Shown here piece by piece: positions 21,418 through 48,068 of a stretch of DNA of 64,000 nt; position 1 is the stretch's first letter; every line of letters begins with the position of its first letter. The DNA is taken from NCBI GenBank assembly GCA_964349675.1, contig CAYGHD010000002.1, forward strand, positions 4,012 to 68,011. The letters run 5' to 3'. The position numbers and the translations under genes were made by a program. Source of the stretch: an uncultured Candidatus Saccharibacteria bacterium. GTDB taxonomy: Bacteria; Patescibacteriota; Minisyncoccia; Phycocordibacterales; SBAW01. The notes beneath the pieces are model-generated. The model was not told the origin of the DNA. It ran no database searches and worked only from the letters and a program-made list of their open reading frames with translations.

Positions 21418-24400
21418 TTATTTTGCAGGCACGCCGCTCCCTGGCCAGCGATAAAAGAGCACCGGCACCATCACGAGCGTGAGTATCATGGCAAAGGTAA
21501 GTCCAAACATAATCGTAAATGCCAACGGCCCCCACAGGCTGGATGCCCCGGCAAGCGGTATCATGCCCACGACGGTGGTGATGGTGGTGAGTACAATAGG
21601 GCGCAAGCGCACGGCAGCTGCTTCAACAATGCCTTCTTTAAGTCCCAGATGCGCTTCGTTTTGGAGTTTGTGTATCACCGAGTCGAGCAGGATGATTGCA
21701 TGGTTAATGATCACGCCGGCAAGCGCGATGACGCCAAGGAGCGACGAGAATGAGAGCGCCATGCCCGACAGTGCCAACCCAGCAAGCACGCCGATGAGAG
21801 ACAAGGGGATGGTGAGCAGCAGGTACATGGTGTAGCGGAAGGAGTTAAAGCTCAACACCAAGATGCCGAGCATCAGCGCCATCCCCGCCAAGAGCGCCAG
21901 CCCCATTTCTGCAAACGACTGATTTACATCTTCGCTCTCTCCGCCGTAGTCGGCAGTGACACCAGAGGGCAGGCCTGCTGCGGCGATCTGTTTTTTAAAC
22001 TCATTAGTAACCTCGAGCGCGTTGGCGCCTGTCGCAAGTTTGCTGGTGACGGTAACGACTCGTTTTTGGTCGGTGTGGGTGATGGCTGCACGCGACTCGT
22101 CTGCCGACGCGGTAATGAGCGAGCCAAGGAGCACAGTACCCGTGGGGGTGCTCAGGGGGATTTGCTTGAGACTGTCTATGGTTGTTTTGTTGGTGTCCTC
22201 TGGATGCACATAGGCTGCGTTAAGGTTCATCTTTACCACTACATCAATGTCATCCTGCGGAGTTTTGATGGTGGTTGCGGTTGACCCTGAAACTGCGATG
22301 CGCAGCGCTTGGGCAACTTGGGCAGCACTGAGCCCCACACTGGCTGCTTTGGCACGGTCGACTTCGATGGTAAATTGCGTGCCGTTGTCGCGCACCGATG
22401 ACTGCACGTCGATGGCACCGGGGATGCCTGCAAGCACAATTTCAGCTTTGTTTGCCGCCTCGGTGAGCGCTGGCAGATCGTCGCCGGTAAATGCAATAGA
22501 CACCGGCGTGCCCGATGATGGGCCGCCCGACGCCTCTTCAACGCGTATCGTTGCGGTAGTGACTGCGGCAAGCTCAGTGCGCAACAGCTGCACTATCTCT
22601 GTTGATGTTTTTGAGCGGTCTTTGGGCAACAGTACGGTAATATTGGCCGTTTTTGTGTTGCTCCCGCCGCCACTTTGATTAAAGCTCGATCCTGCGCCGA
22701 CTGTGGTGACAAAAGATTCGACGTAAGGGTTTGTGTACAAAAATTCCTCAACCTCCCGTGTAGATTTGTCGGTCTGGAGCAATGGGGTGCCCTGCAAGCG
22801 CTCAACTTCAATATACACAAAGTCCTGGTCGTCCTGAGGGAAAAACTCTACTTTCACGAGTCCTGCAACGGGCAAGGCAAGCGACAAGACAAACCCAACG
22901 CCAAGGAGCGACAAAAGCCAATTTTGTTTTTTGCGGTCGCTGAGGAAGGCGCGTAAAAAGTTTTTGTACCAGGTCTGCGCGCGCACTGCATACTCCTCTT
23001 GCAGCACTTCTAGGCGGTTTGGCGCGCTGTGTTTGGTAAACAGCAGCGCCAAGAGCGGCACCATGCCCAATGCCACAAAGATGGACGCAACCAGCACAAA
23101 GATGACCGTAAAGGGGATGCTTGATATAAATTTGCCGACGATACCCGAGAGGAAAAAGAGCGGCGCAAACACCGCAATGGTGGCAACCGTGCCGGCGATA
23201 AGTGGCCATGCATACTCGCGTATCGAGGCGACCGCTGCATCGTAGCCATTGCCCAGGCGCGCAAGCCTTGTGTGGATGGCCTCGGTCACCACGATGCCCG
23301 AATCAACTAAAATTCCGATGGCGAGTATGAGCGAGAAGAGCGAAACAAAGTTTATCGTGTTGCCAGAGACATACAGGCCGATAAATGCGATAACAAATGA
23401 AAGGGGGATAGAGAGCGCTGCCACCACTGCCTCTCGCCAGCCGATGGTTATGAGCAGTACCAACAGCACCAACAGGACAGTCTCGAGCCCTACGCGCGTC
23501 AGTTCGGAGAGGTCTTTTTGCACCAGCTCGCCGCTGTTGTAAGACACTACTACTTGCGCGCCCGCGAGCGTTGTTTGCTTTAACTCTTCAAGCCGTGCCA
23601 CCGCCGCATCTGCTATCTGCGTCACATCGCCCCCGCTTTTTTTGTAAATGTTGAGCGTCAGTGCGTTGCTTGCGGGCTCACCGCCGACTGATGCGCGGGA
23701 TATGGTGCTTGGGGGCGCTAGGCCGTCGATGACCGCTGCGACATCTCGCAGATATACCGGGGCGCCTGCGTTGGTTGCCACCACAATGTCTTGGACGCTT
23801 GCCGGGTCGGTGATCTCGCCGGCAAAAGTAAGGGGGTAGTCAATGTCGGCAACAGTGATGCTCCCGATGGGCATCGATACATTTGCGCTCTGCAGTGCTG
23901 CGACCACTTGGTCCATGCGGACTCCGTAGGTAGTGAGCGCCTCTTTGCGCACCACCACTTGCACCTGGTGTTTGCGCGTACCCGACACAACCACTTTCGA
24001 TACGCCAGAGACTTTGCGGAGCTCTGTTTCGAGGTCGTCCCCTAACTTTGCAAACAGGGCGGGGGAGAGGTCTGCCGAGACTGAGACCATCAGTATCGGT
24101 TGATCAGCAAAATTTACTTGGAGCACCTGCGGCTCGTCAGCCTCGTTTGGGAATGTAAGTTTTGCTCGGTCGACGGCGTCTTTTAAGTCTTGGATGGATT
24201 TGTCGATATCTGCTTTTGCAACAAATTGGACGGTTACCGACGACACTCCTTGCCCCGAAGTGGAAGTGATTTTGTCTACGTTTTCAATATTTGCTGCTTC
24301 GCTCTCTATCTCTTTAGTGAGCAGCTGTTCGATGTCTGTGGCAGAGGCGCCGCGCAAGGTACTGACGACGATGCCAATGGGCACCACCACCTCGGGTGCC

Positions 24401-24510
24401 GACTCTTTGGGGATTGCGAGCAGGGCATAGACTCCGCCAAGCGAAAGGACGCACATAAGCATGTACGTAAAGGCTCGTTTTTTAAGAAAAAATATCCAGA
24501 AGGTCGGCAT
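21418..24510 (-). CDS. RND-superfamily efflux permease (AcrB/HAE-like, 12 TM with two large loops)
   Basis: 1030 aa with typical RND organisation and conserved TM4/TM10 regions. Confidence 0.85.
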   Translation of the reverse strand: MPTFWIFFLKKRAFTYMLMCVLSLGGVYALLAIPKESAPEVVVPIGIVVSTLRGASATDIEQLLTKEIESEAANIENVDKITSTSGQGVSSVTVQFVAKADIDKSIQDLKDAVDRAKLTFPNEADEPQVLQVNFADQPILMVSVSADLSPALFAKLGDDLETELRKVSGVSKVVVSGTRKHQVQVVVRKEALTTYGVRMDQVVAALQSANVSMPIGSITVADIDYPLTFAGEITDPASVQDIVVATNAGAPVYLRDVAAVIDGLAPPSTISRASVGGEPASNALTLNIYKKSGGDVTQIADAAVARLEELKQTTLAGAQVVVSYNSGELVQKDLSELTRVGLETVLLVLLVLLITIGWREAVVAALSIPLSFVIAFIGLYVSGNTINFVSLFSLILAIGILVDSGIVVTEAIHTRLARLGNGYDAAVASIREYAWPLIAGTVATIAVFAPLFFLSGIVGKFISSIPFTVIFVLVASIFVALGMVPLLALLFTKHSAPNRLEVLQEEYAVRAQTWYKNFLRAFLSDRKKQNWLLSLLGVGFVLSLALPVAGLVKVEFFPQDDQDFVYIEVERLQGTPLLQTDKSTREVEEFLYTNPYVESFVTTVGAGSSFNQSGGGSNTKTANITVLLPKDRSKTSTEIVQLLRTELAAVTTATIRVEEASGGPSSGTPVSIAFTGDDLPALTEAANKAEIVLAGIPGAIDVQSSVRDNGTQFTIEVDRAKAASVGLSAAQVAQALRIAVSGSTATTIKTPQDDIDVVVKMNLNAAYVHPEDTNKTTIDSLKQIPLSTPTGTVLLGSLITASADESRAAITHTDQKRVVTVTSKLATGANALEVTNEFKKQIAAAGLPSGVTADYGGESEDVNQSFAEMGLALLAGMALMLGILVLSFNSFRYTMYLLLTIPLSLIGVLAGLALSGMALSFSSLLGVIALAGVIINHAIILLDSVIHKLQNEAHLGLKEGIVEAAAVRLRPIVLTTITTVVGMIPLAGASSLWGPLAFTIMFGLTFAMILTLVMVPVLFYRWPGSGVPAK

Positions 24511-24515
24511 ACTGT

Positions 24516-26117
24516 TTATTTGACGCCAACGGTCATCCCTTCTTTAAGGCCGCGCGCGTCGGTTACGATGCGGAGTTCTGGGGAAATGCCGCCCAACACC
24601 ACCATCTGCTCTCCCATGAGTGCGCCTTCAATAATCGGATGTGCAACGAGTATGTTTTGCTCGTTGACGGTAAAAACAAACGAGCCGTTTGGTGTAATTT
24701 TAATTGCCGACAGTGGCAGCCGGATGACCGCGGTCGTTGCTTCTGCTGTTTTGGCGCGGGCAACCTCTACCCGTACCGACTTGCCGTTGACCAAGGCACT
24801 GGTGCCGATGATGCCGATGCGTACTTCTATCTTTCGTGTTGTTGGGTCAAGTGCTGGGGCGATTTTGGTGACCACCCCATCAACTGCGTCGTCAATGCGC
24901 GCTGTTGCCCCAACCGCAATCGCTGTTGCGTCGGTATCGCTGACATAGGCTACCACCTCAAGCGCGTTATTGTTTGAGACTACTGCGATGGGCGAAAAAG
25001 CAGAGACAAAGTCTCCTGTCTTCACCGGGAGCGAGTTGACTGTGCCTGAAATCGGGCTACGCACGATTGTCTGTTCAAGCCGAGCTTGCGCTGCTTGGAG
25101 GTTGCCAAGCGCCGATTTGACGCTTGCATCCGCGCTTGCCAGCGCCCCGGTTGCAGCACCGCCACCGCCTGCCGAGGTGTTTGCGGTTGTTGCGGCGTTG
25201 AGGCTGTTGCGCGCCAAGGTGATGGACGAGAGCGCGGCGCTCACGGTGGTTCGGCCTGCGTTGATGTTGTTGCGGATGGCGTCAATGGTTGCTTGCGATG
25301 CAGCAGAGTTTGACACTGCTTGCGAGAGCGCAGTTGCAATGTTGTCGAGCAAACTTTTGACTGCGCGGGTGTCGCGCTCAAGCATGTCGAGCTCTTTGGA
25401 TAATGCCGAGTCTACCGTGAGCGTTTTGTTGCGTGCCGCAAGCGCTTTGAGTGTTTGCTCAACTTGCGCGCGCTCTTGCTCGATTGTTTGGATCAGATTT
25501 TGGTTAGGGACGGTGATATTAAATTTTGCCTGGCTGGTTTGCGCATTGATAAATACCGCATCCGCTTTAAGGTGCACTGCATCGTCAAGCGAACTGTAGA
25601 CGGATGAAAAAGTGTTGAGTGCAGCAACCTTCGCTTCACCAAGCGACATTGTGGTGCCGCCTTGTGCAATGCGCGCAATGTCCCTACTTGCTTTTGCGGC
25701 CTCGTACGCACCTTCGGCTTGGAGGAGTTGCGCACGCTCTGTCGCGTTTTCAAACGTTGCAAGGGTTTTGCCTGCAGCGACCGTGTCGCCCAATTTTGTG
25801 TATACGGTTATTTGTCCCGAGGACTCTGCGCGCACCGACGCTTCAGAGCGGGAGGTAACGGTGCCGGTCAGCGGCAGCGGGGTTGCGTTGGATGAGAGCG
25901 CCCCGACACTTTCCAGCGTAACGGTGCGCTGATTTTTTTCTGCCACACTGTCTGCTGGGGTGGTGTGGAATATGAGATTGCCCAAAGCACCCACGACAAT
26001 TACGAGCACGGCAATCACAGCTGCCTTGCGCCAACGGGAGAGCTCCATAAACCATGCATATGTTTGGCGTGCTGCGTCGGCGAGGTCGCTTTTAATTTTG
26101 ATGAGGTGTTGGTTCAT
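24516..26117 (-). CDS. Membrane-fusion (HlyD/AcrA-family) periplasmic adaptor with very long coiled-coil hairpin
   Basis: N-terminal TM. Biotinyl/lipoyl-like half-motifs: VTSRSEASVRAESSGQI and VRSPISGTV. About 200 aa of Ala/Gln-rich coiled coil. Stop is 5 bp before the RND start. Confidence 0.75.
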   Translation of the reverse strand: MNQHLIKIKSDLADAARQTYAWFMELSRWRKAAVIAVLVIVVGALGNLIFHTTPADSVAEKNQRTVTLESVGALSSNATPLPLTGTVTSRSEASVRAESSGQITVYTKLGDTVAAGKTLATFENATERAQLLQAEGAYEAAKASRDIARIAQGGTTMSLGEAKVAALNTFSSVYSSLDDAVHLKADAVFINAQTSQAKFNITVPNQNLIQTIEQERAQVEQTLKALAARNKTLTVDSALSKELDMLERDTRAVKSLLDNIATALSQAVSNSAASQATIDAIRNNINAGRTTVSAALSSITLARNSLNAATTANTSAGGGGAATGALASADASVKSALGNLQAAQARLEQTIVRSPISGTVNSLPVKTGDFVSAFSPIAVVSNNNALEVVAYVSDTDATAIAVGATARIDDAVDGVVTKIAPALDPTTRKIEVRIGIIGTSALVNGKSVRVEVARAKTAEATTAVIRLPLSAIKITPNGSFVFTVNEQNILVAHPIIEGALMGEQMVVLGGISPELRIVTDARGLKEGMTVGVK

Positions 26118-29663: not shown

Positions 29664-29866
29664 TTGTGCGCCTCCTGAGTTGGTTGTCTGCGCCCACTAT
29701 GCCATAACAGCACACAATTTTGTAGTGGTGCGGCCGCCGGCCTCTACTTCAATTACTGTAAAAACTATGTATAATATTGAGTGTTCGATATATTCCGGTG
29801 TAGGGCCGACGTCTGAATCGGCCTCCCGACCGAAGCGTCGGGACTCAATACGCTGGTTAAGTAGAT

Positions 29867-30168
29867 TCCGGTGTAGCTCAATGGTAGAGCAGCTCCCTGT
29901 CTAAAGGCAGCCTTTCAGAGGAATCTGAATTGAAAAACGAGGTGAATTCGGGGAAACCCCTCTGGGGCAATCCCGAGCCAAGCTCCAACCACATGTTGGA
30001 GAAGGTGTAGAGACTATCCCGAAAGGGAGTAGCCTTGCAATGTGCAGGGCGAAGCGCCTCGCATCCGACAACTTCTTGTAAGTTGGGATGATGATATAGT
30101 CCACGCCCGCAGCAATGGGGGATTCACGTGTAAGGAGTTGGTTCCAGGTTCGAGTCCTGGCGCCGGAG
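29867..30168 (+). tRNA. tRNA-Asn(GUU) interrupted by a 230-nt intron between anticodon-loop positions 35 and 36
   Basis: 5' exon 29867-29900 is TCCGGTG-TA-GCTC-AATGGTA-GAGC-A-GCTCC-CTGT. 3' exon 30131-30168 is TAA-GGAGT-TGGTT-CCAGG-TTCGAGT-CCTGG-CGCCGGA-G. All four stems pair; U8, A14, GG18-19 and the T-loop are canonical. U1-A72 and G73 are as in bacterial tRNA-Asn. The spliced loop is CUGUUAA. Confidence 0.8.
29901..30130 (+). ncRNA. Group I (IC3-like) self-splicing intron within tRNA-Asn
   Basis: Strong resemblance to the conserved IC3 core of cyanobacterial tRNA-Leu and Azoarcus tRNA-Ile introns: GGGAAACC...CAATCCCGAGCCAAGC...GAGAAGGTGTAGAGACTAT...ATAGTCC. P1 can form between exon CUGU|C and intronic GGCAG with a U.G wobble at the 5' splice site. 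The intron ends in G. Confidence 0.75.
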
Positions 30169-30180
30169 CCGCTGACATAA

Positions 30181-30203
30181 ACCGCCTGCAATGGGCGGTT
30201 TTG
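30181..30203 (+). terminator. Intrinsic terminator downstream of tRNA-Asn
   Basis: accgcc-tgcaat-gggcggt followed by tttt. Confidence 0.5.
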
Positions 30204-30355
30204 TCGTATGCGGCTCCGAGCGAGGAAGTGTGGGACACTTCCGTCCAGAACTCGAACGCCGGAGCGGGCCCCGCGTCAGCAGATGCGGGAGCGAGGCGCG
30301 GCTAGTAAAAAATTTTGTGACGACAAAGTTTTTATGCGGAGCCGAGTCCTGGCGC

Positions 30356-31003
30356 TCAATCTCGAAAATGGGGCCTGACCCCAACTCCTCTCGGCACCAT
30401 TTCCTGTCGTATGTAGGGAGGATTGCCGATGACGTGTGTAAACTTTTGTTCAAACGCGGTGAGGAGGAAGTCGCCCTGAATCAGCCAGGACGCGAGCACA
30501 GTATCGGCTTGCGTCGCGTCGAGGCCATTCTCTTGCAGGATTTTCTTGAGAGTGCCTTTTGTCTTTTCGAATGATTCGATATGAAGTTCAACCGCCCTGA
30601 TACTGTTTTTTAGAAGCTCTGCGGTCGGCTTCAGTTTTTGGTTGCGAAGTGATTCCATCAAACGCTCCACGGCCGGGATAAGAAAATCGCCGTGCCCGAA
30701 CGAGGGTTCGAGGAGGCTCATGAATTGCAATTTCTGCGACGGCCAATATTCAACCAGATCGAGGATAAAATCGGCTACTTCGCGGCGTGTAAAGACCGCT
30801 CCGCGGTCCTCGGTATTAGCCCCGGCGAGTGTCGCAACGGCAGACGCAAGAAGCTCATTTTCGAATGGGAGTCCTATCGTTCGTGCCTTTGTGGTGCTCA
30901 CGTTCATTACACCTATTTTACCACTTTTACTTGCAACAAAGCTACGCCACCTACCCCTTCTGTAGGTGATAAAATGGAACTCCATAGCGACGCGAATGCC
31001 CTC
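30356..31003 (-). pseudogene. Truncated N6-adenine DNA methyltransferase (gamma-class, motif I then motif IV NPPY), lacks target-recognition domain
   Basis: AVFTRREVADFILDLV..LEPSFGHGDFL...IGNPPY, then stop 18 aa later. The truncation point abuts a partial copy of the tRNA 3' end (30338-30350). Confidence 0.55.
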
Positions 31004-31071
31004 GGTCGAGCCGGGGCATTTTCGTTGGTTTACAAAAAAGAAAGGGCGCGACCACTTGGTAGCGCCCAGTT

Positions 31072-32193
31072 TCAAACCGACAACCTTACCGGTTTGTAAG
31101 TGTTGCGAAGATCGGCCGGTGAGAACACGAACTGACCTACGCTGATACGTCCAGAACCGAACCCGGCGATGTAGAGCGAGAGATAGAAATCGTATTTGCG
31201 ATAGTACCGCAGTCCGTACATTTTTACGATCTCGTTTCGATGTCGAACTAGGTTCTCGCGCCACCCGACAAACGTTTTCACGTAGTCTTCGGGAAAGAGC
31301 TCCTGATCGAGTAGATGAAAGATATCCTGCGTGGCTTCTCTGATCTGACCGAGCGTCGGAAGCATTCCGTTCGGGAAGATGTGTTTCTCCGTCCATGGAT
31401 CCATCGTTGCACGCTTATCGCATGCAAGGATGCACTGCATAACAAAGACTCCATCTTTTCGTGCAAGCGAGTCGCACGCTTTTTGGAAGTACTCCCGATA
31501 GTGGCTTGGACCCACATGCTCGATGACGCAAATGGACACGACCGCATCAACCTTGCCACTAAAGTCACGGTAGTCTTGCAGTCGAAACTCCAGAGGTAAA
31601 TCGCGGTACCTTTCTGCAGCGTACTTACGCTGCGTTTGAGATATCGTGAGTCCGATGCCACTAGAGCCATAGTGCTGTCCTGCGTAGCCGAGAAAACCGC
31701 CCCAGCCAGAGCCGATGTCGAGCACCGTCTTACCGGTCCCGAGAAAAGCTTTCCTGCAGATCAAATCCATCTTCTGGTCTTGCGCCTCATCAAGTAACAA
31801 GACGCCATCCCATCGTCCGCACGTGTAGTTGGTCGTGCGGCCGAGTAAGATGTCGAAGAATTGCGGATCCTCATCGTAGTGCACTTCAGCGACTCGTTTC
31901 GAACGAGTACGGTTTTGCGCGTCGATCACGCCGAAGCGGAGTCTCCTCAGCAACACATCAAGGCGAGGTATCCTGAGATGGATGCCAGATTTTATGATTC
32001 GCTCTATAAGTCCAGCGATATCCGAGCAGTTCCACCAGCCATCCATGTAAGAATCGCCGAGGCCAACAGAACCTTGTAAAAGAACACGCCGGTACCATCG
32101 ATTATCCAGGATCTGCGGATCCCATAGATTTGGGCCGTTGATCACTATTCCAGCTGCCCCGAAAAGGCGCTGGATCGCGAACTTCGCAACCAT
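31072..32193 (-). CDS. cfa: Cyclopropane-fatty-acyl-phospholipid synthase-family SAM-dependent methyltransferase
   Basis: VLDIGSGWGGFLGYAGQHYG SAM motif. DAVVSICVIEHVG and the C-terminal region are typical of the CFA/mycolic acid cyclopropane synthase family. Confidence 0.75.
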   Translation of the reverse strand: MVAKFAIQRLFGAAGIVINGPNLWDPQILDNRWYRRVLLQGSVGLGDSYMDGWWNCSDIAGLIERIIKSGIHLRIPRLDVLLRRLRFGVIDAQNRTRSKRVAEVHYDEDPQFFDILLGRTTNYTCGRWDGVLLLDEAQDQKMDLICRKAFLGTGKTVLDIGSGWGGFLGYAGQHYGSSGIGLTISQTQRKYAAERYRDLPLEFRLQDYRDFSGKVDAVVSICVIEHVGPSHYREYFQKACDSLARKDGVFVMQCILACDKRATMDPWTEKHIFPNGMLPTLGQIREATQDIFHLLDQELFPEDYVKTFVGWRENLVRHRNEIVKMYGLRYYRKYDFYLSLYIAGFGSGRISVGQFVFSPADLRNTYKPVRLSV

Positions 32194-32307
32194 CAGAACC
32201 TCCTCAAGGTTGGATTTGTGGACACGATCGTCCGTTGACGAATATACCAAGGAAATTTCTTATCGGCTATCCAGGCATTTTCGTTGGTTTTTTGCTAAGC
32301 TTAGGGC

Positions 32308-32886
32308 ATGGAAATTGGCATTTGGGGAGACAGCATAACTTACGGCGAAAGCGACTCCGAGGCCCTTGGGTGGGTTGGCAGACTGCGGAAATCTACATCT
32401 GTAGACGAAGATAAACAGGTCTACAATCGCGGAATCTGTGGCAACACAACTGAAGATTTACTCAAGCGTTTTAAGGTGGAAGCTGACTCCCTTGAGCCAA
32501 ATATCGTGGTATTTGCTATCGGCATAAACGACTCAAAGTATCCGGTCGGAGAGCAAACAAATAAGATTTCACTTGAGCAGTTTAAGAAAAATATCGAGTC
32601 TCTTTTGCAGCAAGCAAAAGTCTACACGCAGACGATTTTCGTTGTCGGGGCTACGCAAGTTGATGAGGAGGTTGTGTCGCAATGGAAAGATAGCTCGCTC
32701 TTTTACAATGCGGAGATACAAAAATATAACGACGTTTTGAAAGAGACCGCTGCTTCCAGCGGTGTTTCGTATGTGGATGTGTCTGAAGTTTTAGATGCAA
32801 AAACTGATTTGCATGATGGGCTGCACCCAAATGCAAAGGGGTATGAAAAACTTGCGATGGCAATAAAAAGCGAAATTAAAATATGA
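32308..32886 (+). CDS. SGNH/GDSL-family hydrolase
   Basis: GDSITYG block I, GxND block III (AIGINDS) and DGLHPN block V. Confidence 0.7.
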   Translation: MEIGIWGDSITYGESDSEALGWVGRLRKSTSVDEDKQVYNRGICGNTTEDLLKRFKVEADSLEPNIVVFAIGINDSKYPVGEQTNKISLEQFKKNIESLLQQAKVYTQTIFVVGATQVDEEVVSQWKDSSLFYNAEIQKYNDVLKETAASSGVSYVDVSEVLDAKTDLHDGLHPNAKGYEKLAMAIKSEIKI

Positions 32887-33428
32887 ATCTGACTTTTATA
32901 ACCGGAAATGCCGCTAAAGCCGAGCAACTTGGTAAACATTTAGACCACCCTGTAGCTCACAAGAAATTGGACTTACCCGAGATTCAGTCTTTAGACCTGC
33001 ATGAAATTATCGAGCACAAGACCAAGGAAGCGTATAAACAAATTGGCGGCGTAGCACTTGTGGAGGATACCTCCCTTACTTTTAAGGCCTTGGGTAGATT
33101 GCCAGGCCCACTCATAAAGTGGTTTCTTACAGAGTTGGATAATGCAGGGCTCTGTAAACTCTTGGACGGTTACGAGGATAGGTCTGCAGTTGCGGAAGTG
33201 TGTTTCGGTCTTTACGACGGTAAAGAGCTAAAGATGTTCGATGGCAAAGCTCATGGCTCCATCGCTACTGTGCCGCGTGGTGAAAGAGGATTTGGCTGGG
33301 ATCCAGTGTTTATTCCCGAAGGTCACCATAAGACTTGGGGCGAAATGGATCCGGAGGAGCAGAAAGAAACCTCTATGCGTCGTATAGCCCTTAAGAAATT
33401 GGAGGCATATCTCAAACAAAATGGCTAA
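32883..33428 (+). CDS. rdgB: Non-canonical purine NTP pyrophosphatase (RdgB/HAM1 family)
   Basis: FITGNAAK, EDTSL, GFGWDPVFIPEG and SMRRIA motifs. Confidence 0.85.
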   Translation: MNLTFITGNAAKAEQLGKHLDHPVAHKKLDLPEIQSLDLHEIIEHKTKEAYKQIGGVALVEDTSLTFKALGRLPGPLIKWFLTELDNAGLCKLLDGYEDRSAVAEVCFGLYDGKELKMFDGKAHGSIATVPRGERGFGWDPVFIPEGHHKTWGEMDPEEQKETSMRRIALKKLEAYLKQNG

Positions 33429-33756
33429 GACTTACTCAGGCACTATTGTTGAGAGCAGTCTTTCCGACAAAAATGTCCTCGACCAACTCCAAGTAATCAA
33501 AAAATATCCCTCTGGGGGTTGGACTTTGTACGATGTCTTGGTTAACGAGGAGCAGATACCGCAGCTCGCCAAATCTTTGGCGAACGGTCCCTGGTATATC
33601 CACCTGTGGCAGCCCGGGCAAGACGAAGTAAAAGTGATCTTTAAAGATAAAGTTTTTTCTATTAAATATTCCGACAAATCTACCTGGGTTGGCGTGGTCG
33701 CTTACGGAAAGTCCATCGGCATACCGGACGAGCAACTCGACTTCCCAATAAACTAA
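33421..33756 (+). CDS. Hypothetical protein
   Basis: ORF translationally coupled to rdgB. No recognisable motif. Confidence 0.3.
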   Translation: MAKTYSGTIVESSLSDKNVLDQLQVIKKYPSGGWTLYDVLVNEEQIPQLAKSLANGPWYIHLWQPGQDEVKVIFKDKVFSIKYSDKSTWVGVVAYGKSIGIPDEQLDFPIN

Positions 33757-33817
33757 GCACGCAGACTTACGTGAATGCACGCAACTAAACGCCTCTCATT
33801 CACTAAAATCTCGCCTT

Positions 33818-34135
33818 TTAGCGTGAATTGGTCTGCGGCCTTACTCTTTCCATCCACTTCATCGTTTCCTCGTCAAACGGCTCCTCGCCCCGGAGCATTT
33901 TGACGGCAGCCTCCATCTCGTAGGACTTGTAGCCGTTCAAAATAACGGTTCGAAGTTCCTGCGCTGCTCGGAGCTTGGTTAGCAACAAATCGCCTTTGGG
34001 CGATTTTTGCGTTACAAGCCCCAGGCGAGGAAGCAACTTGAGTTGCTTCCGTCCAGGACTCGAAAGGGTTGAGTCTATCGTAGCGAGTTTGTAAAACGAA
34101 GCGAGATACAAAACCCATACTGTTGCTGTAAGCAA
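33818..34135 (-). CDS. Hypothetical protein
   Basis: ORF only. Confidence 0.2.
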   Translation of the reverse strand: MLTATVWVLYLASFYKLATIDSTLSSPGRKQLKLLPRLGLVTQKSPKGDLLLTKLRAAQELRTVILNGYKSYEMEAAVKMLRGEEPFDEETMKWMERVRPQTNSR

Positions 34136-34515
34136 AGAGTCCTATTTTGACGCCAGAATAACTCTTGACCCATTTATATTTTATAAGCACAATACCTCCG
34201 GTATGTGTGTTTCTCTTGGGAGAATAAGGCAATGAAAGACAGTGCAACGGGTGCGTGGTGTGCCCTTTGGTCGGGGGTCAAGGTGTCTGGATGGACGCCT
34301 GCAGCCTTGTTGCTTGTGATGTGCGCCGTGCCCATCGTGCACGGTTGCCTGAGCGAAAGCGGGCCGGCGCTAGAGCCCTGCAGCATCTTTGAGGCAGGGG
34401 ACGCTGGCCGCCTTTGCGCAAAAGCAATCATGATGCGTGGCGGGGGACTACCCTGAGTAAATTATCCAACAACGCGCGATAGACCATTTCCACCCCAGAC
34501 AGCAAAGTCTGGGGT

Positions 34516-34620
34516 ATTTTTTTATTCCCTATACGTCGCCGTGTTATTTTTTATAGCCTCCACACTTTTGGGTACGCACTTTGCACAGGTCTGACCTGTG
34601 CAGCAGGTTCATACGGGGGA
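34516..34620 (+). repeat. Intergenic repeat element, copy A (contains perfect palindrome gcacaggtctgacctgtgc)
   Basis: Shares tttattcc...ttatagcctccac.cttttggg.acgcact.tg.cag.tctgacctg.gcagca...acggggga with copies at 36125-36210 and 37263-37369. Confidence 0.55.
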
Positions 34621-34718
34621 GCCTGTGCTTTACAGAACTATTTTAATGTGATATATTAGTAGGTAGTCGAATCACAGCATGCCCCTCCTGCCGTGTTAGC
34701 ACAACACAGGAGAGAAGA

Positions 34719-35180
34719 ATGACTTTACTAACAGGCCTCGGCATCGACGAGCATGAGGTGAGGTGCTGCCCTGACTGTGGGGCAAGGGAGGTGCGTGTAG
34801 CTGCGGAGAGTCGCAGCCTAAACCACACGCATGGTAGTGCTGTGAAATTGAGTGTTGTGATACCTATCTGGACCTGCAAGGATTGTAGGTTTGCCTACAC
34901 AGATGGGCGCGGACAGCAGATTGAGCAGGAGGCAGTTGAAAGTTTTTTGCAACGTCGGCTATTGCCACACGAAGTGCGTAGTATACGAGTTGTTTTGGGT
35001 TTGTCGCGAGAGCAATTCGCTCTACTGACAGGCTATGGAACGGCGACGATTAAACGCTGGGAAAATGGTACGCTGGTGCAAAACGCATCAGCTGACCGAT
35101 TCTTGCGGTTGATTGCTGACAGTGAAGTGGCACAAAAACTGCTGCGACTCGGAAAGGAGATAGATGCAGCGAATAAATAG
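34719..35180 (+). CDS. MqsA-family zinc-ribbon + XRE-HTH antitoxin-like regulator (orphan; no MqsR-like partner seen)
   Basis: N-terminal CPDCG...CKDC zinc ribbon. C-terminal LGLSREQFALLTGYGTATIKRWENGT HTH, collinear with MqsA. Confidence 0.6.
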   Translation: MTLLTGLGIDEHEVRCCPDCGAREVRVAAESRSLNHTHGSAVKLSVVIPIWTCKDCRFAYTDGRGQQIEQEAVESFLQRRLLPHEVRSIRVVLGLSREQFALLTGYGTATIKRWENGTLVQNASADRFLRLIADSEVAQKLLRLGKEIDAANK

Positions 35181-35272
35181 ATACGACACCCGGTCCACTT
35201 GGCCGGGTTTTCTTTTACCTAAAGTAGGTCCCAACCCCGAGAACTTTTACGGGGGCGTGCTATCTTTCTAGA

Positions 35273-36061
35273 ATGAACGAATTTTCCAAAGAACTCAATG
35301 CAGCAAAAAAGATAGCTCGACAAGCCGGAGAGATAATGCTCAGGTATTTTTCCGACGAACTAATTGTTGAGCGGAAAAATGACGACTCTCCCGTTACGAA
35401 AGCTGATATTGAAATAAATCGTCTTGTTATTGAAGAGTTGGGAAAGCAATTTAACGATGGTATTGTCGGTGAGGAAGAGAGTACTGCGGAGTATGGAATG
35501 GGTCGAAGATGGATATGCGACCCAATTGATGGCACGAGAGCTTTTACTTGGGGTTTGCCAACATCAATGTTTTCGCTTGGACTCGCCATAGACGGAATCC
35601 CAGTGCTGGGCGTTGCATACGACCCTTTCCTTGATCTCCTCTATGAAGCAACAAAAGATAGTGAAAGCCTTTGTAATGGCAAGCCTATCCACGTATCGTC
35701 TGTTGGAATTACAGGTGCCTCAATTGCTGTCTCTGGTAGTCCAGAGAAACTTTTAGACGACCCTTCACAAGCCGCCCTCCTCGCACGTCTCGTCGAGAAA
35801 AAAGTACGTATCGTTGGTTTTAGTGGATCGGTATATCGTGCATGTCTGGTCGCGCGTGGAAGACTTGCCGGTTATGTTGAAAAAAATATAAATACACACG
35901 ACCTTGCTGCTGTGGAAGTTATACTGAAACAAGCGGGTGGCATGATTACTGATTTTGAAGGGAAACAGTTGGATTACAGCAAGGCTTTTAAAGGGGCGGT
36001 TATTTCTAACTCGGTCGTTCATGCGGATCTTTTGGAGTGTGTAGCTGGTCTTGATTGGTAG
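35273..36061 (+). CDS. Inositol monophosphatase family protein (SuhB/CysQ-like)
   Basis: EE..TAEY metal-binding segment, WICDPIDGT motif and C-terminal DxxxGG region. Confidence 0.8.
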   Translation: MNEFSKELNAAKKIARQAGEIMLRYFSDELIVERKNDDSPVTKADIEINRLVIEELGKQFNDGIVGEEESTAEYGMGRRWICDPIDGTRAFTWGLPTSMFSLGLAIDGIPVLGVAYDPFLDLLYEATKDSESLCNGKPIHVSSVGITGASIAVSGSPEKLLDDPSQAALLARLVEKKVRIVGFSGSVYRACLVARGRLAGYVEKNINTHDLAAVEVILKQAGGMITDFEGKQLDYSKAFKGAVISNSVVHADLLECVAGLDW

Positions 36062-36124
36062 AAACTTGACGTTTTAGTCATAATGTGGAACTTCGCAACC
36101 TTAAAGCCGCCTTTCCACAAGGCG

Positions 36125-36210
36125 GCTTTTCTTTTTATTCTATATACACCACCGCTCTAGTCTCTATAGCCTCCACGCTTTTGGGTACACACTTTTGCAA
36201 ACTAGGGGAC
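36125..36210 (+). repeat. Intergenic repeat element, copy B (palindrome deleted), fused to terminator hairpin 36103-36137
   Basis: See copy A. Preceded by aaagccgcc-tttccacaa-ggcggcttt hairpin and T-run. Confidence 0.5.
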
Positions 36211-36692
36211 AGTAGGGGCAGCGCGTTTTCTAGAGGCATAAAAATGTATTCCTCAAGCTCCCCAGTGTCTAGTTTTATTGATGCAATTTGATCGTCGGTT
36301 AGCGTGCCGCCATAGAAGACAAATTTAAGAGAGTCTGGGTATACTCCTTTTTTGTGTGCAAAATATATTCCTACCAGTTGTAGCGTTATCGCGCTCAATC
36401 CAATTTCTTCCCGCGTCTCTCGCAGGGCGCAGTGGAGCGGGGATTCATCTTCGTCGGCTGCTCCGCCAGGCACCAACCATTCTTCCCTGTAATCTGGTTT
36501 AACTACAAGCAATTCGTTTTTGGAGTTAAAAAACAGCACCGCAGTCCCAACCTGTTTCTTGGGCAGCAGGGCGGCATACTCTTCGTCGGTATATTTTTTT
36601 ACCACACGCACATCATAGCATTGAGAAGCCCCGCCCGTTTCTTGTAAGGGAAGAGTCCTGGCGCCGGAGCAAAAGTTGACAATTATTTGCAT
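36135..36692 (-). CDS. NUDIX hydrolase
   Basis: Nudix box GGAADEDESPLHCALRETREEIGL. The start is uncertain: ATG 36692 or a GTG near 36610. Confidence 0.75.
   Translation of the reverse strand: MQIIVNFCSGARTLPLQETGGASQCYDVRVVKKYTDEEYAALLPKKQVGTAVLFFNSKNELLVVKPDYREEWLVPGGAADEDESPLHCALRETREEIGLSAITLQLVGIYFAHKKGVYPDSLKFVFYGGTLTDDQIASIKLDTGELEEYIFMPLENALPLLSPSLQKCVPKSVEAIETRAVVYIE
36653..36670 (+). repeat. 18-bp direct repeat of the tRNA-Asn 3' end (att-like island boundary)
   Basis: gagtcctggcgccggagc is identical to 30152-30169. Confidence 0.55.
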
Positions 36693-37227: not shown

Positions 37228-37262
37228 CTGCGTGCCGCCACCTCGTCTCGGACGAGATGGCG

Positions 37263-37369
37263 GTTTTTCTTTTTATTCCACATACACCACCACGTTAGTG
37301 TTTATAGCCTCCACGCTTTTGGGCACGCACTCTGTGCAGTCTGACCTGCGCAGCAAATAAGACGGGGGA
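37263..37369 (+). repeat. Intergenic repeat element, copy C, fused to terminator hairpin 37235-37275
   Basis: See copy A. 13-bp stem ccgccacctcgtc/gacgagatggcgg, a T-run, then the conserved block with GGCACG-N4 motif and palindrome. Confidence 0.55.
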
Positions 37370-43618: not shown

Positions 43619-43969
43619 ATGCATTACAACATCAAAGGTACCGGTTTGGCAGTAAGTGACGAAATTCGCTCATATATTGAAAAACGCTTACCAACGATAG
43701 AAAAGTATACCAGCGACGCTGATGCTCGGGTGGATATTGAGCTCGAGTATTTAAAAGATGAGGCAAAAATGTATCGCGCAGAGCTGATGTTCCATACGGT
43801 GCGCTCTGCGTCCATGCGTAGCGAGGCGCGCGGGGCCACGCTCCATGAGTCTATCGACATTGCCATAGGAGACTTGTCTCGAGAGCTTTCGCAGCATAAG
43901 AAAAAGCGTCGAGATATATTCCGCCGCGGCGCAGCAAAGGTTAAGGCTGTGTTGCGGGGTTGGTACTAG
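43619..43969 (+). CDS. hpf: Ribosome hibernation-promoting factor / RaiA (short form)
   Basis: Collinear with the S30AE family (NIKGTGLAVSDEIRSYIEKRL..VDIELEY). Confidence 0.75.
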   Translation: MHYNIKGTGLAVSDEIRSYIEKRLPTIEKYTSDADARVDIELEYLKDEAKMYRAELMFHTVRSASMRSEARGATLHESIDIAIGDLSRELSQHKKKRRDIFRRGAAKVKAVLRGWY

Positions 43970-44826
43970 CCAAGATACTGCGCATAATCCATCTCACTCT
44001 TTCCTTCAGGGATAACGCGGATAATAACCAACTTTCCGTCTTCAATAGACGCATCCGTCACAATAAGTCGCGTATTGTTGTGGAAAAAGTGCGCACGGGG
44101 GCTTTTGTCGAACGCGCGGATTTTGAGCAGCTCAGCGCGCGGGTCGCCCAAGGGGTCAATAAGTGCATCTTCTGAAGAAAATTTTTTGGTGTATGTGGCA
44201 GCAATCTCATTCTGTGGTTCTGCAGGTATCTCGCCAGAAATCCAGGGTTCAAGGGTCTCCGCCAGCAGGGTGCCTCCTTCTGCAGCTAAAAATGTTTCAA
44301 ACGCGCTGCCTTTTGGAGGCCAGCCGCCTTCTCCCGTATCTTCATCCACCTCAATCCGTGCTTGGGCAACAATGGGTCCGGCATCCATTTTTTCGGTGAG
44401 CTGCATAATCGTTACCCCGGTAGTGCGCTCATCTGCCAATATGGCAGAGAGTACCGGGGATGGTCCGCGGAACTTCGGTAAGAGTGATGGGTGTACGTTG
44501 AGCGTGCCGCGTCGCGGCAGATCAAGAATATGTTTTGGGATCAGTTTGCCGTACATGGCCACCACAAACACATCCCAGTCTGTGTTTTCTATCGCAGCAA
44601 GAAAGTCGGCATCTGCAAGCGTTTCGGGTGTGCACACATCAATCCCTTGTTTTTCACCCCATGCTTTTGCGGGGGAGGGTGTGGTCACCAGGCCGCGGCC
44701 TTTTGGTTTGTCTGGCGCGGTGACGATGAGCGCCGGCTTGTAGCCGCGCGCATACAGCGCTTCAAGCACGGTGACCGAAAGATCGGGGGTGCCAAAGAAT
44801 ACAAAGAGTGGTTTTTTTACGCTCAT
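43966..44826 (-). CDS. fmt: Methionyl-tRNA formyltransferase
   Basis: FFGTPDLSV N-terminus, the HPSLLPKFRG catalytic region and a C-terminal domain. Confidence 0.9.
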   Translation of the reverse strand: MSVKKPLFVFFGTPDLSVTVLEALYARGYKPALIVTAPDKPKGRGLVTTPSPAKAWGEKQGIDVCTPETLADADFLAAIENTDWDVFVVAMYGKLIPKHILDLPRRGTLNVHPSLLPKFRGPSPVLSAILADERTTGVTIMQLTEKMDAGPIVAQARIEVDEDTGEGGWPPKGSAFETFLAAEGGTLLAETLEPWISGEIPAEPQNEIAATYTKKFSSEDALIDPLGDPRAELLKIRAFDKSPRAHFFHNNTRLIVTDASIEDGKLVIIRVIPEGKSEMDYAQYLG

Positions 44827-44829
44827 AGG

Positions 44830-45342
44830 TTATATCGCCTGGTCGTCATGCAGCTCGACTGTTTTGTCAGTGTAGAGGATACCTTCCAAATGGTCATACT
44901 CATGCTGGAAGATATGCGCCAGCAACCCAGAGCCTTGATACGTAAAATAATTGCCAGCACTATCTTGCGCGCGGACGGACGCTTTTTCGTGCCGAGATAC
45001 GCTGCCGTATTTGCCGCGCACCGACAAACAGCCTTCAGCTAAATCCTTCTTCTTTTTTGAAAGGCGCATGATCTCTGGGTTGATGAATATCTTGTTTGGT
45101 ACTGCAGGCTGCTCCTCGTTTTTCTTGGAGGTCTCAAATGCTTTGTTGGCGACCACAAAGATGCGTTTTGATACACCAATTTGCGGCGCAGCAATGGCGA
45201 CGCCAAATTTTTCTTTTGCGAGCGCGCGCTCCATTTTTCGGATAATCGCAATAAGCGCTTTTGAACCAAACTCGGCTTGGGTTACTGGCGCAGCTTTTTT
45301 GCGCAGCACCGGAGCGCCCGTCTGGACAATAAGGTCTTTCAT
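44830..45342 (-). CDS. def: Peptide deformylase
   Basis: GVAIAAPQIG, EGCLSV and QHEYDHLEG metal-binding motifs. The fmt-def pair is conserved. Confidence 0.85.
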   Translation of the reverse strand: MKDLIVQTGAPVLRKKAAPVTQAEFGSKALIAIIRKMERALAKEKFGVAIAAPQIGVSKRIFVVANKAFETSKKNEEQPAVPNKIFINPEIMRLSKKKKDLAEGCLSVRGKYGSVSRHEKASVRAQDSAGNYFTYQGSGLLAHIFQHEYDHLEGILYTDKTVELHDDQAI

Positions 45343-45661
45343 GTTCCTACAAAATACGCTGTTTTTGCCAAAAAAGAAAGGTCGGGGAGGGTTTGCTATA
45401 CTGATTGGGACATGAAGCACATAAGCGCGCATAGTATTTCCGCCGCAGAGAAAAAAAGCCGCGCAACCGAGCGCGGTGAGCTGATGGAATATTTTCTTAA
45501 AAAACTCAATCAAGCACGGGTGCAAGATGGTTTGGCGCCGATGACCATGGGGCGCATCGCCCGGCTGCTGATGGCGACTCCGACCAAAGATCTATACTAT
45601 CTGCAAACAGTCTGCGACCGAGCGCCGCATTTTTCAAAAAAGTTTTGGTGGGAGGTAAATC

Positions 45662-46981
45662 CTAAGAAGCATGATCCTCAAACACAGCAACTGACGCCCC
45701 CAAAGAAGAGAGTTTGGAAGCAAGCCCCTCGTAGCCTCGATTAATACTATATATATTGCGCAATATCGACGTACCTGGCGCCGCAAGCATTGCAATGAGC
45801 AGTATGGTTGCGGGGCGGAGTGCTGGCGGGCAGGTTAAGTCGCCTGCATGAAGTGGCGTTTTACCGGTCACAAAGATGCGGTGCGGGTCGGCAAGGAGCG
45901 TCTGTCCGCCCAGTTTATCGAGTTCGGTAAAGTACAGTGCGCGTTTTTCATATGCCCAGTCGTGTATGAGCGTTGTGCCCTCTGCTTGTGTTGCAATGAC
46001 TGCAAAAAATGGCAAGTTGTCGATGTTGAGCCCAGGGTAGGGGCGTCCGTAGAGTTTTTCGGGGCTGGCAACCAACGCGCTTGGCAGTGTTTCAATATCA
46101 GCCAAGGCGACGTGGCCATCTTCGCTTGTGTAGCGTTTAAGGAGTTTGTACTGAAAGCCCATTTTTTCGAGCTTGAGCAACTCGAGCTCCAAAAAGTTGA
46201 TAGGGCAGCGCTCAATGGTGATTTGAGATTGGGTGACGATCGCTGCTGCCAAAAAAAACATCGCATCAGTCGGGTCTTCGTGTATCGTAAACGTGATGTC
46301 TTGATTGATATCTTTTTTGCCGCGTACCACGAGCGTTGTAGTACCGACGCCCTCTATCGAAACACCGAGTGCTTGGAGAAAAAAGCATGCGTCCTGCACT
46401 TGGTAGTTTGCCGACGCGTATTTAATGGTGCTCTCACCGTCGATGCCCGCTGCAGCCAAAAGCGCGTTGATGGTTGCTGTGTCGCCCGACTCATACATAA
46501 TGACTTCGCTTGGCACAAGGCCTTTGTGCGATACTTCCCAGAAATTGTCTGTTGTCTCAATGTTGACGCCAAATTTTTCAAGCGCATAGAGGTGCGGGCG
46601 TACCGTGCGGCTCCCCAGTTTGCATCCACCTGCCTGCGGCAGTTTAAAAGCGTTCATGCGATGGATGAGCGCGCCGGTAAACATCAAAATGCTACGTGTT
46701 TTTTCTGCAGCGATTTTGTCTATGGTGGTGAGGTCGATGGTTTGAGGCGGGGTAATGACCACGTCGCCGCCCTGCCAAACTACCGACACGCCGACGCTCT
46801 GCAGCACTTCGATGATGCGGTTCACTTCTTCAATCTTTGGCATGTGTTTGAGCGTCGTAGTGCCGCGGTTGATGAACGACGCGCATAAAAGTGCAACCGC
46901 ACCGTTTTTTGATGAATTTATCTCTATGGTGCCATGGAGCTGCTTGCCGCCCTCGATGCGGAAGTTGAGTGTTGGTTTCAT
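45662..46981 (-). CDS. murA: UDP-N-acetylglucosamine 1-carboxyvinyltransferase
   Basis: EPSP-synthase fold collinear with MurA (KNGAVALL...). Confidence 0.9.
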   Translation of the reverse strand: MKPTLNFRIEGGKQLHGTIEINSSKNGAVALLCASFINRGTTTLKHMPKIEEVNRIIEVLQSVGVSVVWQGGDVVITPPQTIDLTTIDKIAAEKTRSILMFTGALIHRMNAFKLPQAGGCKLGSRTVRPHLYALEKFGVNIETTDNFWEVSHKGLVPSEVIMYESGDTATINALLAAAGIDGESTIKYASANYQVQDACFFLQALGVSIEGVGTTTLVVRGKKDINQDITFTIHEDPTDAMFFLAAAIVTQSQITIERCPINFLELELLKLEKMGFQYKLLKRYTSEDGHVALADIETLPSALVASPEKLYGRPYPGLNIDNLPFFAVIATQAEGTTLIHDWAYEKRALYFTELDKLGGQTLLADPHRIFVTGKTPLHAGDLTCPPALRPATILLIAMLAAPGTSILRNIYSINRGYEGLASKLSSLGASVAVFEDHAS

Positions 46982-47041
46982 ACCTCTCCAGGGTAGCACA
47001 GATGAGCAATAGTTTGAAAAAGGGGAGAAACCACAGTACCA

Positions 47042-48064: not shown

Positions 48065-48068
48065 GGCT

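Follow-up and report, generated by a model that had tools for sequence, protein, structure and literature searches.

A tRNA-Asn(GUU) gene in a Patescibacteria contig is split between anticodon positions 35 and 36 by an IA2-like group I intron without an open reading frame

Introduction

A stretch of 64,000 nucleotides (nt) of the metagenome contig CAYGHD010000002.1, referred to below as the window, carries at positions 29867-30168 the two halves of a tRNA gene separated by 230 nt. An initial annotation, made from the letters alone, read this locus as a tRNA-Asn(GUU) gene interrupted by a group I intron of the IC3 type. The locus raises the question of which tRNA is restored by splicing, to which subgroup the intron belongs, and whether it is an intact ribozyme, a relic, or a mobile element linked to an adjacent island-like block. 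The evidence reported here leads us to conclude, with high confidence, that the window contains a Patescibacteria (Paceibacteria/Parcubacteria-type) tRNA-Asn(GUU) gene split at 35/36 by a 230-nt group I intron that lacks an open reading frame (ORF), belongs to subgroup IA (IA2-like) and not to IC3, and is likely not actively mobile.

Results

Identification of the intron and of its host tRNA

Comparison of the window with Rfam returned the group I intron family RF00028 at positions 29886-30122 of the plus strand (62.6 bits for a gathering score of 50; E = 1.7e-13), and the match spanned the full model (positions 1-253). RF00028 was the sole Rfam family above threshold across the 64-kb window, and the search was repeated on the local region. 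The group I assignment of the initial annotation was therefore confirmed. In default mode, ARAGORN found no tRNA in the unspliced window. Deletion of 29901-30130 in silico led the same program to call a tRNA-Asn(GTT) with four paired stems, including two G.U pairs. The exons of 34 nt (29867-29900) and 38 nt (30131-30168) amount to 72 physical nt up to the discriminator G73. The cloverleaf is thus paired as had been claimed, but the tRNA has 72 nt and not the announced 73, because its D-loop is short. CCA is not encoded, the gene being directly followed by CCG.

Two junctions are compatible with the rule that a U precedes the 5' splice site (U-1) and a G ends the intron (omega-G), and also restore a 7-nt anticodon loop. 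The first, 29900/30131, generates CUGUUAA and tRNA-Asn(GUU). The second, 29898/30129, generates CUUGUAA and tRNA-Thr(UGU). The intron mode of ARAGORN (-i) selected the latter, reporting Thr(tgt) i(33,230). Since intron boundaries are arbitrary in this mode, the splice sites were chosen on the basis of the U-1/omega-G rule, the pairing of P1, and intron-less alleles. The P1 alignment of Rfam was misregistered (U29898 paired with A; C.C mismatch) and was consequently not used for this purpose. At the Asn junction, P1 comprises the pairs C29897-G29910, U-A, G-C, and U29900.G29907, to which the intronic pair C29901-G29906 is added, closed by the loop UAAA. The proposed pairing of the exon end CUGU with GGCAG, the placement of a U.G wobble pair at the 5' splice site, and the terminal G of the intron (G30130) were all verified. 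The strength of P1 is 4+2 base pairs (bp) with the U.G at the Asn junction versus 2 bp at the Thr junction.

Intron-less alleles were sought by scanning 185,579 species genomes (GTDB) for the 5' exon, GTAGCTCAATGGTAGAGCAGCTCCCTGT, which was detected at no fewer than 119 loci. Among these, at least 64 were uninterrupted, at least 48 harbored an intron at the same site, and at least 5 more began with intron sequence before running off the end of the locus. All 64 uninterrupted alleles listed read CTGT/TAAGGAG (the slash marks the junction), and CTTGTAA was found in none of them. The spliced tRNA of the window matches at every position (100% identity) the uninterrupted gene of locus L221, which ARAGORN calls tRNA-Asn. 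The intron corresponds exactly to 29901-30130 because the intron-less alleles fix the register uniquely. Both the tRNA-Asn(GUU) host and the 35/36 junction proposed by the initial annotation were therefore retained.

A tRNA-Thr(UGU) gene with an intron at 33/34, cleaved after U29898 and ending with an omega-G at G30128, would agree with the ARAGORN intron mode, with a U and a G preceding the respective splice sites, and with a 7-nt loop, CUUGUAA. This interpretation is extremely unlikely in view of the 2-bp P1, of the 64 alleles with the same exons that are all Asn(GUU), and of the intron-less twin in L221. The pair U1-A72 and the discriminator G73, which we take to be features resembling bacterial tRNA-Asn, also count against it. 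Finally, an identical two-base miscall has been documented: ARAGORN and tFind frequently mislabel Asn genes interrupted at 35/36 as Thr(UGU) genes interrupted at 33/34 (PMC13011429).

Integrity of the ribozyme fold

The window intron and 6 nt of exon on each side were aligned with homologs from the genome scan (alignment A1, 25 distinct sequences). Helices were read from the window sequence and then mapped onto A1. Standard pairs occupied 95.8% of the pair cells, versus 33-47% when the 3' partners were slid by 1-3 columns. Compensatory changes, affecting both sides of a pair, were present at 36 of the 63 pairs, and the observed covariation score was reached in none of 500 shuffles. P2 and P6a covary at every pair and P4, P8, and P9 at several, including 4 of the 6 pairs of P4 (100% of cells paired); P5 is paired in 87% of cells, and no variation occurs in P7 or in most of P3. 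The U.G wobble of the splice site is kept in 25/25 sequences, and the intron-internal pair of P1 alternates between CG (13 sequences) and GC (11 sequences). The minimum free energy (MFE) fold of the window sequence alone recovered P1, P2, P3, P4, P5, P6a, P7.1, P7.2, and P8 (z = -3.38), and the conserved core P3-P9, including the P3/P7 pseudoknot, was supported by covariation. The Rfam E-value, the covariation, and the folding z-score exclude a chance origin.

These results bear on the possibility that the locus is a decaying pseudo-tRNA, or an inactive intron kept as junk. This possibility is very unlikely. A mismatch in P9, the absence of an encoded CCA, and the partial tRNA duplicates and insertions that surround the gene are what such a relic might display. 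Against decay, no core helix is disrupted and P7 does not vary, the exons match exactly those of an intron-less allele that looks functional, and the relative L128 (95% identity) retains the structure with compensatory changes in P7.2. In addition, the intron-bearing gene appears to be the sole tRNA-Asn gene of these loci, and ARAGORN sees no tRNA on L128, L207, L202, or L227.

Assignment of the intron to subgroup IA

The initial annotation classified the intron as IC3 and described its core as nearly identical to those of IC3 introns in tRNA genes. The second statement was substantiated. The core motif of the window intron, GAGCCAAGC-N18-AAGGUGUAGAGACUA, and the other core motifs quoted in the annotation are present in the window where they had been placed, and no fewer than 120 contigs of viral or proviral origin contain the former without change. 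For about half of these viral matches, a split host tRNA gene could be recognized, in most cases tRNA-Leu(UAA) interrupted at 34/35. In all the viral introns examined, GAGACUA leads straight into the 3' strand of P3, which is the IC3 layout.

The identity of the core does not make the window intron an IC3 intron. In IC3 introns, the 5' strand of P7 runs directly into the 3' strand of P3, and P7.1 and P7.2 are lacking. In the window, these strands are separated by 38 nt (30017-30054) that form two covarying hairpins, P7.1 and P7.2. Linkage of P7.1 and P7.2 by G-U-A, as found here, defines subgroup IA2 (PMC3428280). In the survey of Nakagawa et al. (PMC13011429), 25 of 28 introns located at 35/36 were classified as IA, and no tRNA intron of Patescibacteria was classified as IC. 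Direct kinship with the IC3 introns of Azoarcus tRNA-Ile and cyanobacterial tRNA-Leu would account for the motif exactly shared with the viral tRNA introns, for the small size without P5abc, and for the location in an anticodon loop. This origin is nevertheless unlikely given the covarying P7.1-GUA-P7.2 segment and the published classification of introns at this site. On its architecture, the window intron is assigned to subgroup IA and is IA2-like, with some uncertainty as to the sub-subgroup.

Several observations were made on the viral introns themselves. According to the U-1/omega-G rule, the hosts of the viral and proviral introns with the IC3 layout (L004-L123) included tRNA-Leu(UAA), Met(CAU), Arg(UCU), and, at 35/36, Lys(CUU). 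One contig of 298 kb (L051, IMGVR_UViG_3300033233_000001) contains such an intron in a tRNA-Asn(GUU) gene at 35/36, inside a tRNA cluster. A frequent viral intron type displays an odd anticodon loop, UUAUAAA.

Host lineage and introns of relatives at the same site

Among the matches listed, the tRNA exon was found almost exclusively in metagenome-assembled genomes (MAGs) of Patescibacteria (Saccharibacteria, Paceibacterota, Adlerbacteria, Nomurabacteria, Kaiserbacteria, and similar), and the closest introns were those of L128 (95.2% identity) and L207 (93.5% identity), two freshwater 'Ca. Nomurabacteria' MAGs. L207 and the window are also 90% identical in the non-coding flanks and 86% identical in a NUDIX gene. 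The cluster fmt-def-murA-mreB-holB (43966-48731) corresponds, with 65-75% DNA identity, to the genes located beside tRNA-Asn in many of these MAGs. Judged by these exon, flank, and housekeeping-gene matches, the window contig, which measures 77.7 kb and stems from the metagenome assembly ENA ERZ27247837, belongs to Patescibacteria despite an AcrB/HlyD pair and RHS-type toxins. The latter genes had raised the possibility of a horizontally acquired, 'foreign' tRNA, which was rejected since the housekeeping genes and the flanks also match Patescibacteria MAGs.

A full-length AcrB-family transporter of 1030 aa (Pfam E = 1e-177), together with its HlyD-type partner, and an RHS/SpvB/YD-shell protein of more than 1961 aa are encoded at 21418-26117 of the window and on the part of the contig outside it (L001 16183-21602). 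We did not expect an RND-type pump in Patescibacteria. Two loci labelled 'uncultured Gammaproteobacteria', L181 (CAZVIU010000012.1) and L193 (CAZWMJ010000041.1), contain a tRNA-Asn exon of the Patescibacteria type, which in one of the two is accompanied by the long intron. These labels probably reflect mis-binning or mislabelling.

A second intron lineage of 187-219 nt was detected in relatives (Table 1). In these introns, GAGACUA-GAUACCGAAA runs straight into the 3' strand of P3, in an IC3-like layout. Because this short lineage, which lacks P7.1 and P7.2, occupies the same 35/36 site, two structurally distinct introns are found at one insertion site. Longer inserts (Table 1) are also present at the site, and the 3' part of those of L181, L188, and L216 is homologous to the window intron. 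The insert of L181 contains an ORF of 115 aa that displays CxxC...HH...CxxCH motifs and weakly matches HNH in Pfam (19.4 bits for a cutoff of 21.4), and it likely encodes a homing endonuclease, as judged from these motifs.

Table 1. Coordinates of the features of the tRNA-Asn locus, its surroundings, and introns of relatives at the same site.
Feature	Position	Strand	Evidence and remarks
TATAAT, -10-like box	29770..29775	+	Read by eye; equivalent in L207/L128 about 20 nt upstream of the tRNA
Partial tRNA duplicate and two-hairpin module	29794..29857	+	Copy of tRNA nt 1-10, 29794-29803; H1, 29804-29823; H2, 29824-29843; CTCAAT; acceptor-like 3' strand, 29851-29857; outside the intron
5' exon of tRNA-Asn(GUU), nt 1-35, ending C32 U33 G34 U35	29867..29900	+	ARAGORN; exact match to the 5' half of tRNA-Asn in at least 119 GTDB genomes
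P1, exon CUGU and intron C with GGCAG, loop UAAA	29897..29910	+	UG in 25/25; U29900.G29907 is the 5' splice site
Group I intron, 230 nt, no ORF, IA-type (IA2-like)	29901..30130	+	RF00028, covariation, MFE, stop codons in all frames
P2 hairpin, GGAA (GNRA) tetraloop	29914..29929	+	6/6 pairs compensatory, 100% of cells paired
P3, 5' strand (partner 30055-30061)	29938..29944	+	7 pairs, 97.7% of cells paired; in MFE fold
P4-P5 domain: P4, 29948-29953/29971-29976; P5, 29957-29960/29964-29967	29948..29976	+	Covariation
P6 and P6a	29977..30006	+	P6a, 6/6 pairs compensatory
P7, 5' strand GAGACUA, bulged A30011 (partner 30097-30102)	30010..30016	+	6/6 pairs invariant in 25 sequences
P7.1 hairpin, UCCC-GAAA-GGGA	30017..30028	+	100% of cells paired, 3/4 pairs compensatory; missing from viral introns with the IC3 layout
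G-U-A linker of P7.1 and P7.2	30029..30031	+	Invariant in A1; diagnostic of IA2 (PMC3428280)
P7.2 hairpin	30032..30050	+	5/5 basal pairs compensatory; in MFE fold
P3, 3' strand	30055..30061	+	Covariation alignment
P8, 5 basal pairs and an extension of variable length among homologs	30062..30090	+	100% of cells paired, 2 pairs compensatory
P7, 3' strand, AUAGUCC block	30097..30102	+	Invariant
P9 hairpin, one G.G mismatch in the window copy	30106..30121	+	4/5 pairs compensatory, 94% of cells paired
omega-G	30130..30130	+	G236 of the aligned fragment, invariant in A1; junction from intron-less alleles
3' exon of tRNA-Asn, U36 A37 ... discriminator G73	30131..30168	+	ARAGORN; comparison with intron-less alleles
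Terminator-like hairpin AACCGCC-TGCAATG-GGCGGTT, then T run	30180..30203	+	Read by eye; equivalent hairpin in L207 and L227
Partial copy of the tRNA 3' end, 12 nt (GAGTCCTGGCGC), left block boundary	30344..30355	+	Sequence comparison; outside the intron
Copy of the tRNA 3' end, 18 nt (GAGTCCTGGCGCCGGAGC), right block boundary	36653..36670	+	Repeat search; outside the intron
Short-lineage introns (187-219 nt) of relatives			L127, L134, L154, L161, L162, L166, L171, L176, L179, L183, L187, L190, L204, L211, L212, L217, L224, L235
Long inserts (562-594 nt) of relatives, same tRNA-Asn site	L181 6281-6842; L205 3747-4308; L188 37-602; L216 5137-5730		

Mobility of the intron and relationship with the adjacent block

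No homing endonuclease ORF was found in the 230-nt intron, all three frames of which contain stop codons. Among the matches listed, the commonest mature tRNA sequence occurred 22 times with an intron and 22 times without. This patchy presence fits sporadic gain and loss of the intron within the lineage, the window copy being no longer autonomously mobile. Because it lacks a homing endonuclease gene, the window intron most likely reflects vertical inheritance or sporadic loss, and not active mobility.

The initial annotation had also noted that the intron adjoins an island-like block, and considered this to be consistent with the spread of a mobile intron. The block is real. The last 18 nt of the tRNA (GAGTCCTGGCGCCGGAGC) recur at 36653-36670 (0.00 matches expected by chance). 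L207 contains, about 175 nt 3' of its tRNA, a single contiguous partial copy, that is, an unsplit site; in the window this copy is split by about 6.3 kb (30356-36652). The G+C content of the block is lower, at 0.47-0.49 over most of its length. Pfam identified in the block an Eco57I-like fragment, CMAS, a GDSL lipase, Ham1, IMPase, and NUDIX, and the precomputed annotation added one HTH/MqsA-like hit. No integrase or recombinase was found among the ORFs of the block that were scanned, several small ORFs lying outside the scan. A third fragment, inside the block at about 33963-34064, consists of the last 6 nt of the tRNA followed by a trailer of the L207 type. Together, these three fragments derived from the tRNA 3' end form a putative att-like signature of one or two integrated elements, and their arrangement suggests that elements accumulated successively at the tRNA 3' end.

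The proposed link between the block and the intron did not hold. Recent delivery of an actively mobile intron by the block is very improbable. It would be compatible with a block of lower G+C content bordered by tRNA 3'-end repeats about 190 nt downstream, with the HNH-like ORF of relatives at the same site, and with the patchy distribution of introns among genomes with identical mature tRNAs. However, L207 and L128 share the intron (93-95% identity) and lack the block, the intron contains no ORF, the boundaries of the block are at the tRNA 3' end and not near the anticodon, and the scanned ORFs include no integrase. The block is thus uninformative on the movement of the intron, because the intron occurs without it and because the block is delimited within the tRNA 3' end. 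For the block, the tRNA gene served as a site of integration, and the intron and the block are unrelated.

A 73-nt intergenic direct repeat was observed in three copies (34508-34580, 36121-36193, and 37259-37331; 73-100% identity) and also in L207. Its copies are located between genes or at gene ends, and terminator or promoter signals common to them may reside in this repeat. Closer to the tRNA, just 3' of the terminator-like hairpin, a structured segment of about 140 nt (30205-30340) is 90% conserved in L207 and 76% conserved in L227. Comparison of this segment with Rfam returned no match.

A two-hairpin module upstream of the tRNA gene

In comparison to L207 and L128, the window contains about 73 additional nt between the TATAAT box and the tRNA. 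In this segment, tRNA nt 1-10 are repeated and followed by two GC-rich hairpins, by CTCAAT, and by a strand able to pair with the 5' strand of the acceptor stem. The same module, in which (N)TAG is followed by a GC-rich hairpin that varies, by the constant sequence TCCCGACCRARGCGTCGGGA, and then by CTCAA, was found in 31 distinct instances in GTDB loci and a metagenome scan (loci including L153, L202, L211, L230, and L243-L277). In most instances, the 10 nt preceding the module agree at 8-10 positions with the initial 10 nt of the next downstream tRNA. The associated tRNA genes represent at least 8 specificities, namely Asn, Thr, Asp, Ala, Arg, Lys, Ile, and Val. At two loci, a complete tRNA-Thr precedes the module, and nt 11-76 of a second copy come after it. 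The matching flanks and the tRNA-Thr loci indicate that the module marks position 10/11 of partial tRNA duplicates. The module is independent of the intron since it is also present with intron-less alleles (L230).

Among the copies located at tRNA-Asn that were inspected (window, L202, L211, and L230), the 3' part of the module covaries with the acceptor stem of each genome. For this reason, a simple target-site duplication was considered insufficient to explain the upstream repeat TCCGGTGTAG. Comparison of the module with Rfam returned no match, and no description of it was found in the literature, the nearest category being GTAG-tagged palindromes (REPs, PMC3733652). The module could be a small mobile element of the REP/IS200 type targeting a (N)TAG/CTCA box of tRNA genes (the slash marks the boundary). 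Alternatively, it could act as a transcribed mimic of the acceptor stem in the pre-tRNA leader, affecting 5' processing or the folding of the intron-containing precursor. We only tentatively propose that the tRNA-Asn gene bears three independent layers of tRNA-targeted insertion, with the module perhaps representing an undescribed family; we regard this as possible but doubtful.

Discussion

Our analysis indicates that the window harbors a tRNA-Asn(GUU) gene interrupted at 35/36 by an intact IA2-like group I intron. Several points weigh against this conclusion or parts of it. A consensus promoter scan and a strict terminator scan of the locus returned no signals. The P9 helix contains a G.G mismatch (pair 30109/30118) in the window and in its two closest relatives. 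The genome may contain other tRNA-Asn genes outside the one contig analyzed. The subgroup assignment is based on architecture and on the published labels of relatives, and the sub-subgroup is made uncertain by the IA1 (not IA2) labels of Asn relatives from outside Patescibacteria, the homologous introns of Nitrospirota and Bipolaricaulota being given as IA1 in PMC13011429. Finally, splicing is known experimentally only for a published relative that is inserted at the same site and displays about 60% identity over the aligned columns.

The splicing pathway that we infer for the window intron is that of the family; the anatomy, covariation, homology, and junction were observed here. Transcription of the precursor would presumably start from the TATAAT box near 29770 and extend as far as the hairpin at 30180-30203, and the intron would fold into P1-P9 with P7.1 and P7.2 as peripheral elements. 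An external guanosine bound in P7 would attack the phosphodiester bond following U35 (U29900), presented by P1 as a U.G pair. By analogy, the putative guanosine-binding pair is G30012-C30101, beside the bulged A30011. The omega-G (G30130) would then take the site of the guanosine, and the free 3'-OH of U35 would attack the 3' splice site. Ligation of CUGU to UAA would restore the 7-nt anticodon loop CUGUUAA.

The locus is of practical importance for annotation. Default tRNA finders miss the gene, and the intron-aware mode of ARAGORN gives a wrong anticodon, Thr(UGU). Public gene calls report an ORF of 87 aa at 30042-30305 of the plus strand (L001 5813-6076), covering the intron and the 3' exon, which is almost certainly spurious. 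Genomes of Patescibacteria can therefore seem to lack tRNA-Asn, because the gene is missed, overlain by a spurious ORF, or miscalled. The introns of 94-95% identity that are already present in public MAGs are unannotated there. With the homologs compiled here, the published picture now covers draft genomes as well: about half of the at least 119 genomes sharing the exon bear an intron, and two structurally distinct intron lineages as well as variants with an HNH-like ORF occupy one insertion site. The partial duplicates and att-like repeats flanking the gene suggest that tRNA genes are hotspots for several kinds of insertion in these small genomes.

The initial annotation considered a tRNA-Asn host and a 35/36 insertion site as unusual. 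This holds for the classical literature. The class was however catalogued in 2020: tRNA/intron-site combinations were raised from 4 classical ones to 21 in a survey of GenBank assemblies available in 2017 (Williams 2020, tFind, bioRxiv 10.1101/2020.01.27.920355), and, according to PMC13011429, include 'Asn.4Ug', which tFind sometimes miscalls 'Thr.2Ug'. The window intron shows the features of this class, namely a tRNA-Asn split between 35 and 36, at position 4 of the anticodon loop, U as the -1 nucleotide, and G as the omega nucleotide, and it does not differ from the class in kind.

The closest known systems are the introns described in 2026 by Nakagawa et al. (mSystems; PMC13011429; bioRxiv 10.1101/2025.07.03.662931), who examined 95 complete genomes of Patescibacteria and reported 15 tRNA-Asn(GUU) genes that a group I intron interrupts at 35/36. 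The 35/36 site is strongly enriched in this phylum, the introns self-splice precisely in vitro, and some of them encode homing endonucleases (PMC13011429). The window intron shares with them the host tRNA, the site, U-1, omega-G, the phylum, and the failure of default tools followed by the Thr(UGU) 33/34 miscall. Its core aligns throughout with three of the published sequences (57-63% identity over aligned columns), with 63% identity to that of Paceibacteria GCA_016699245.1, which also has the P7.1-GUA-P7.2 layout, and 60% identity to that of Saccharimonadia GCA_016700035.1, which was spliced in vitro. The latter differs in having a single long hairpin between P7 and the 3' strand of P3, instead of two. 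In contrast to the published set, the window copy is a different species-level copy from a metagenome contig, in which CCA is not encoded. Thus, every feature tested identifies the window intron as another member of a described class, and not as a new one.

A second comparison is provided by the IA2 introns of phages, of which T4 td and Twort are further examples. The intron of the phage Pf-WMP3 DNA polymerase gene (PMC3428280) resembles the window intron by the P7.1-G-U-A-P7.2 segment between P7 and the 3' strand of P3 and by a compact core. The phage introns are located in protein-coding genes, often contain endonuclease ORFs, and sometimes lack P2, whereas the window intron is located in the anticodon loop of a tRNA, possesses P2, and contains no ORF. 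The IC3 introns of Azoarcus tRNA-Ile, cyanobacterial and plastid tRNA-Leu(UAA), tRNA-fMet, and tRNA-Arg share with it the anticodon-loop location, the small size, and, as the viral examples demonstrate, a near-identical P6-J6/7-P7 core (GAGCCAAGC...AAGGUGUAGAGACUA). They differ from the window intron by the absence of P7.1 and P7.2, by their other host tRNAs, and by insertion at 33/34, 34/35, or 36/37 rather than 35/36, the viral intron of L051 being the exception.

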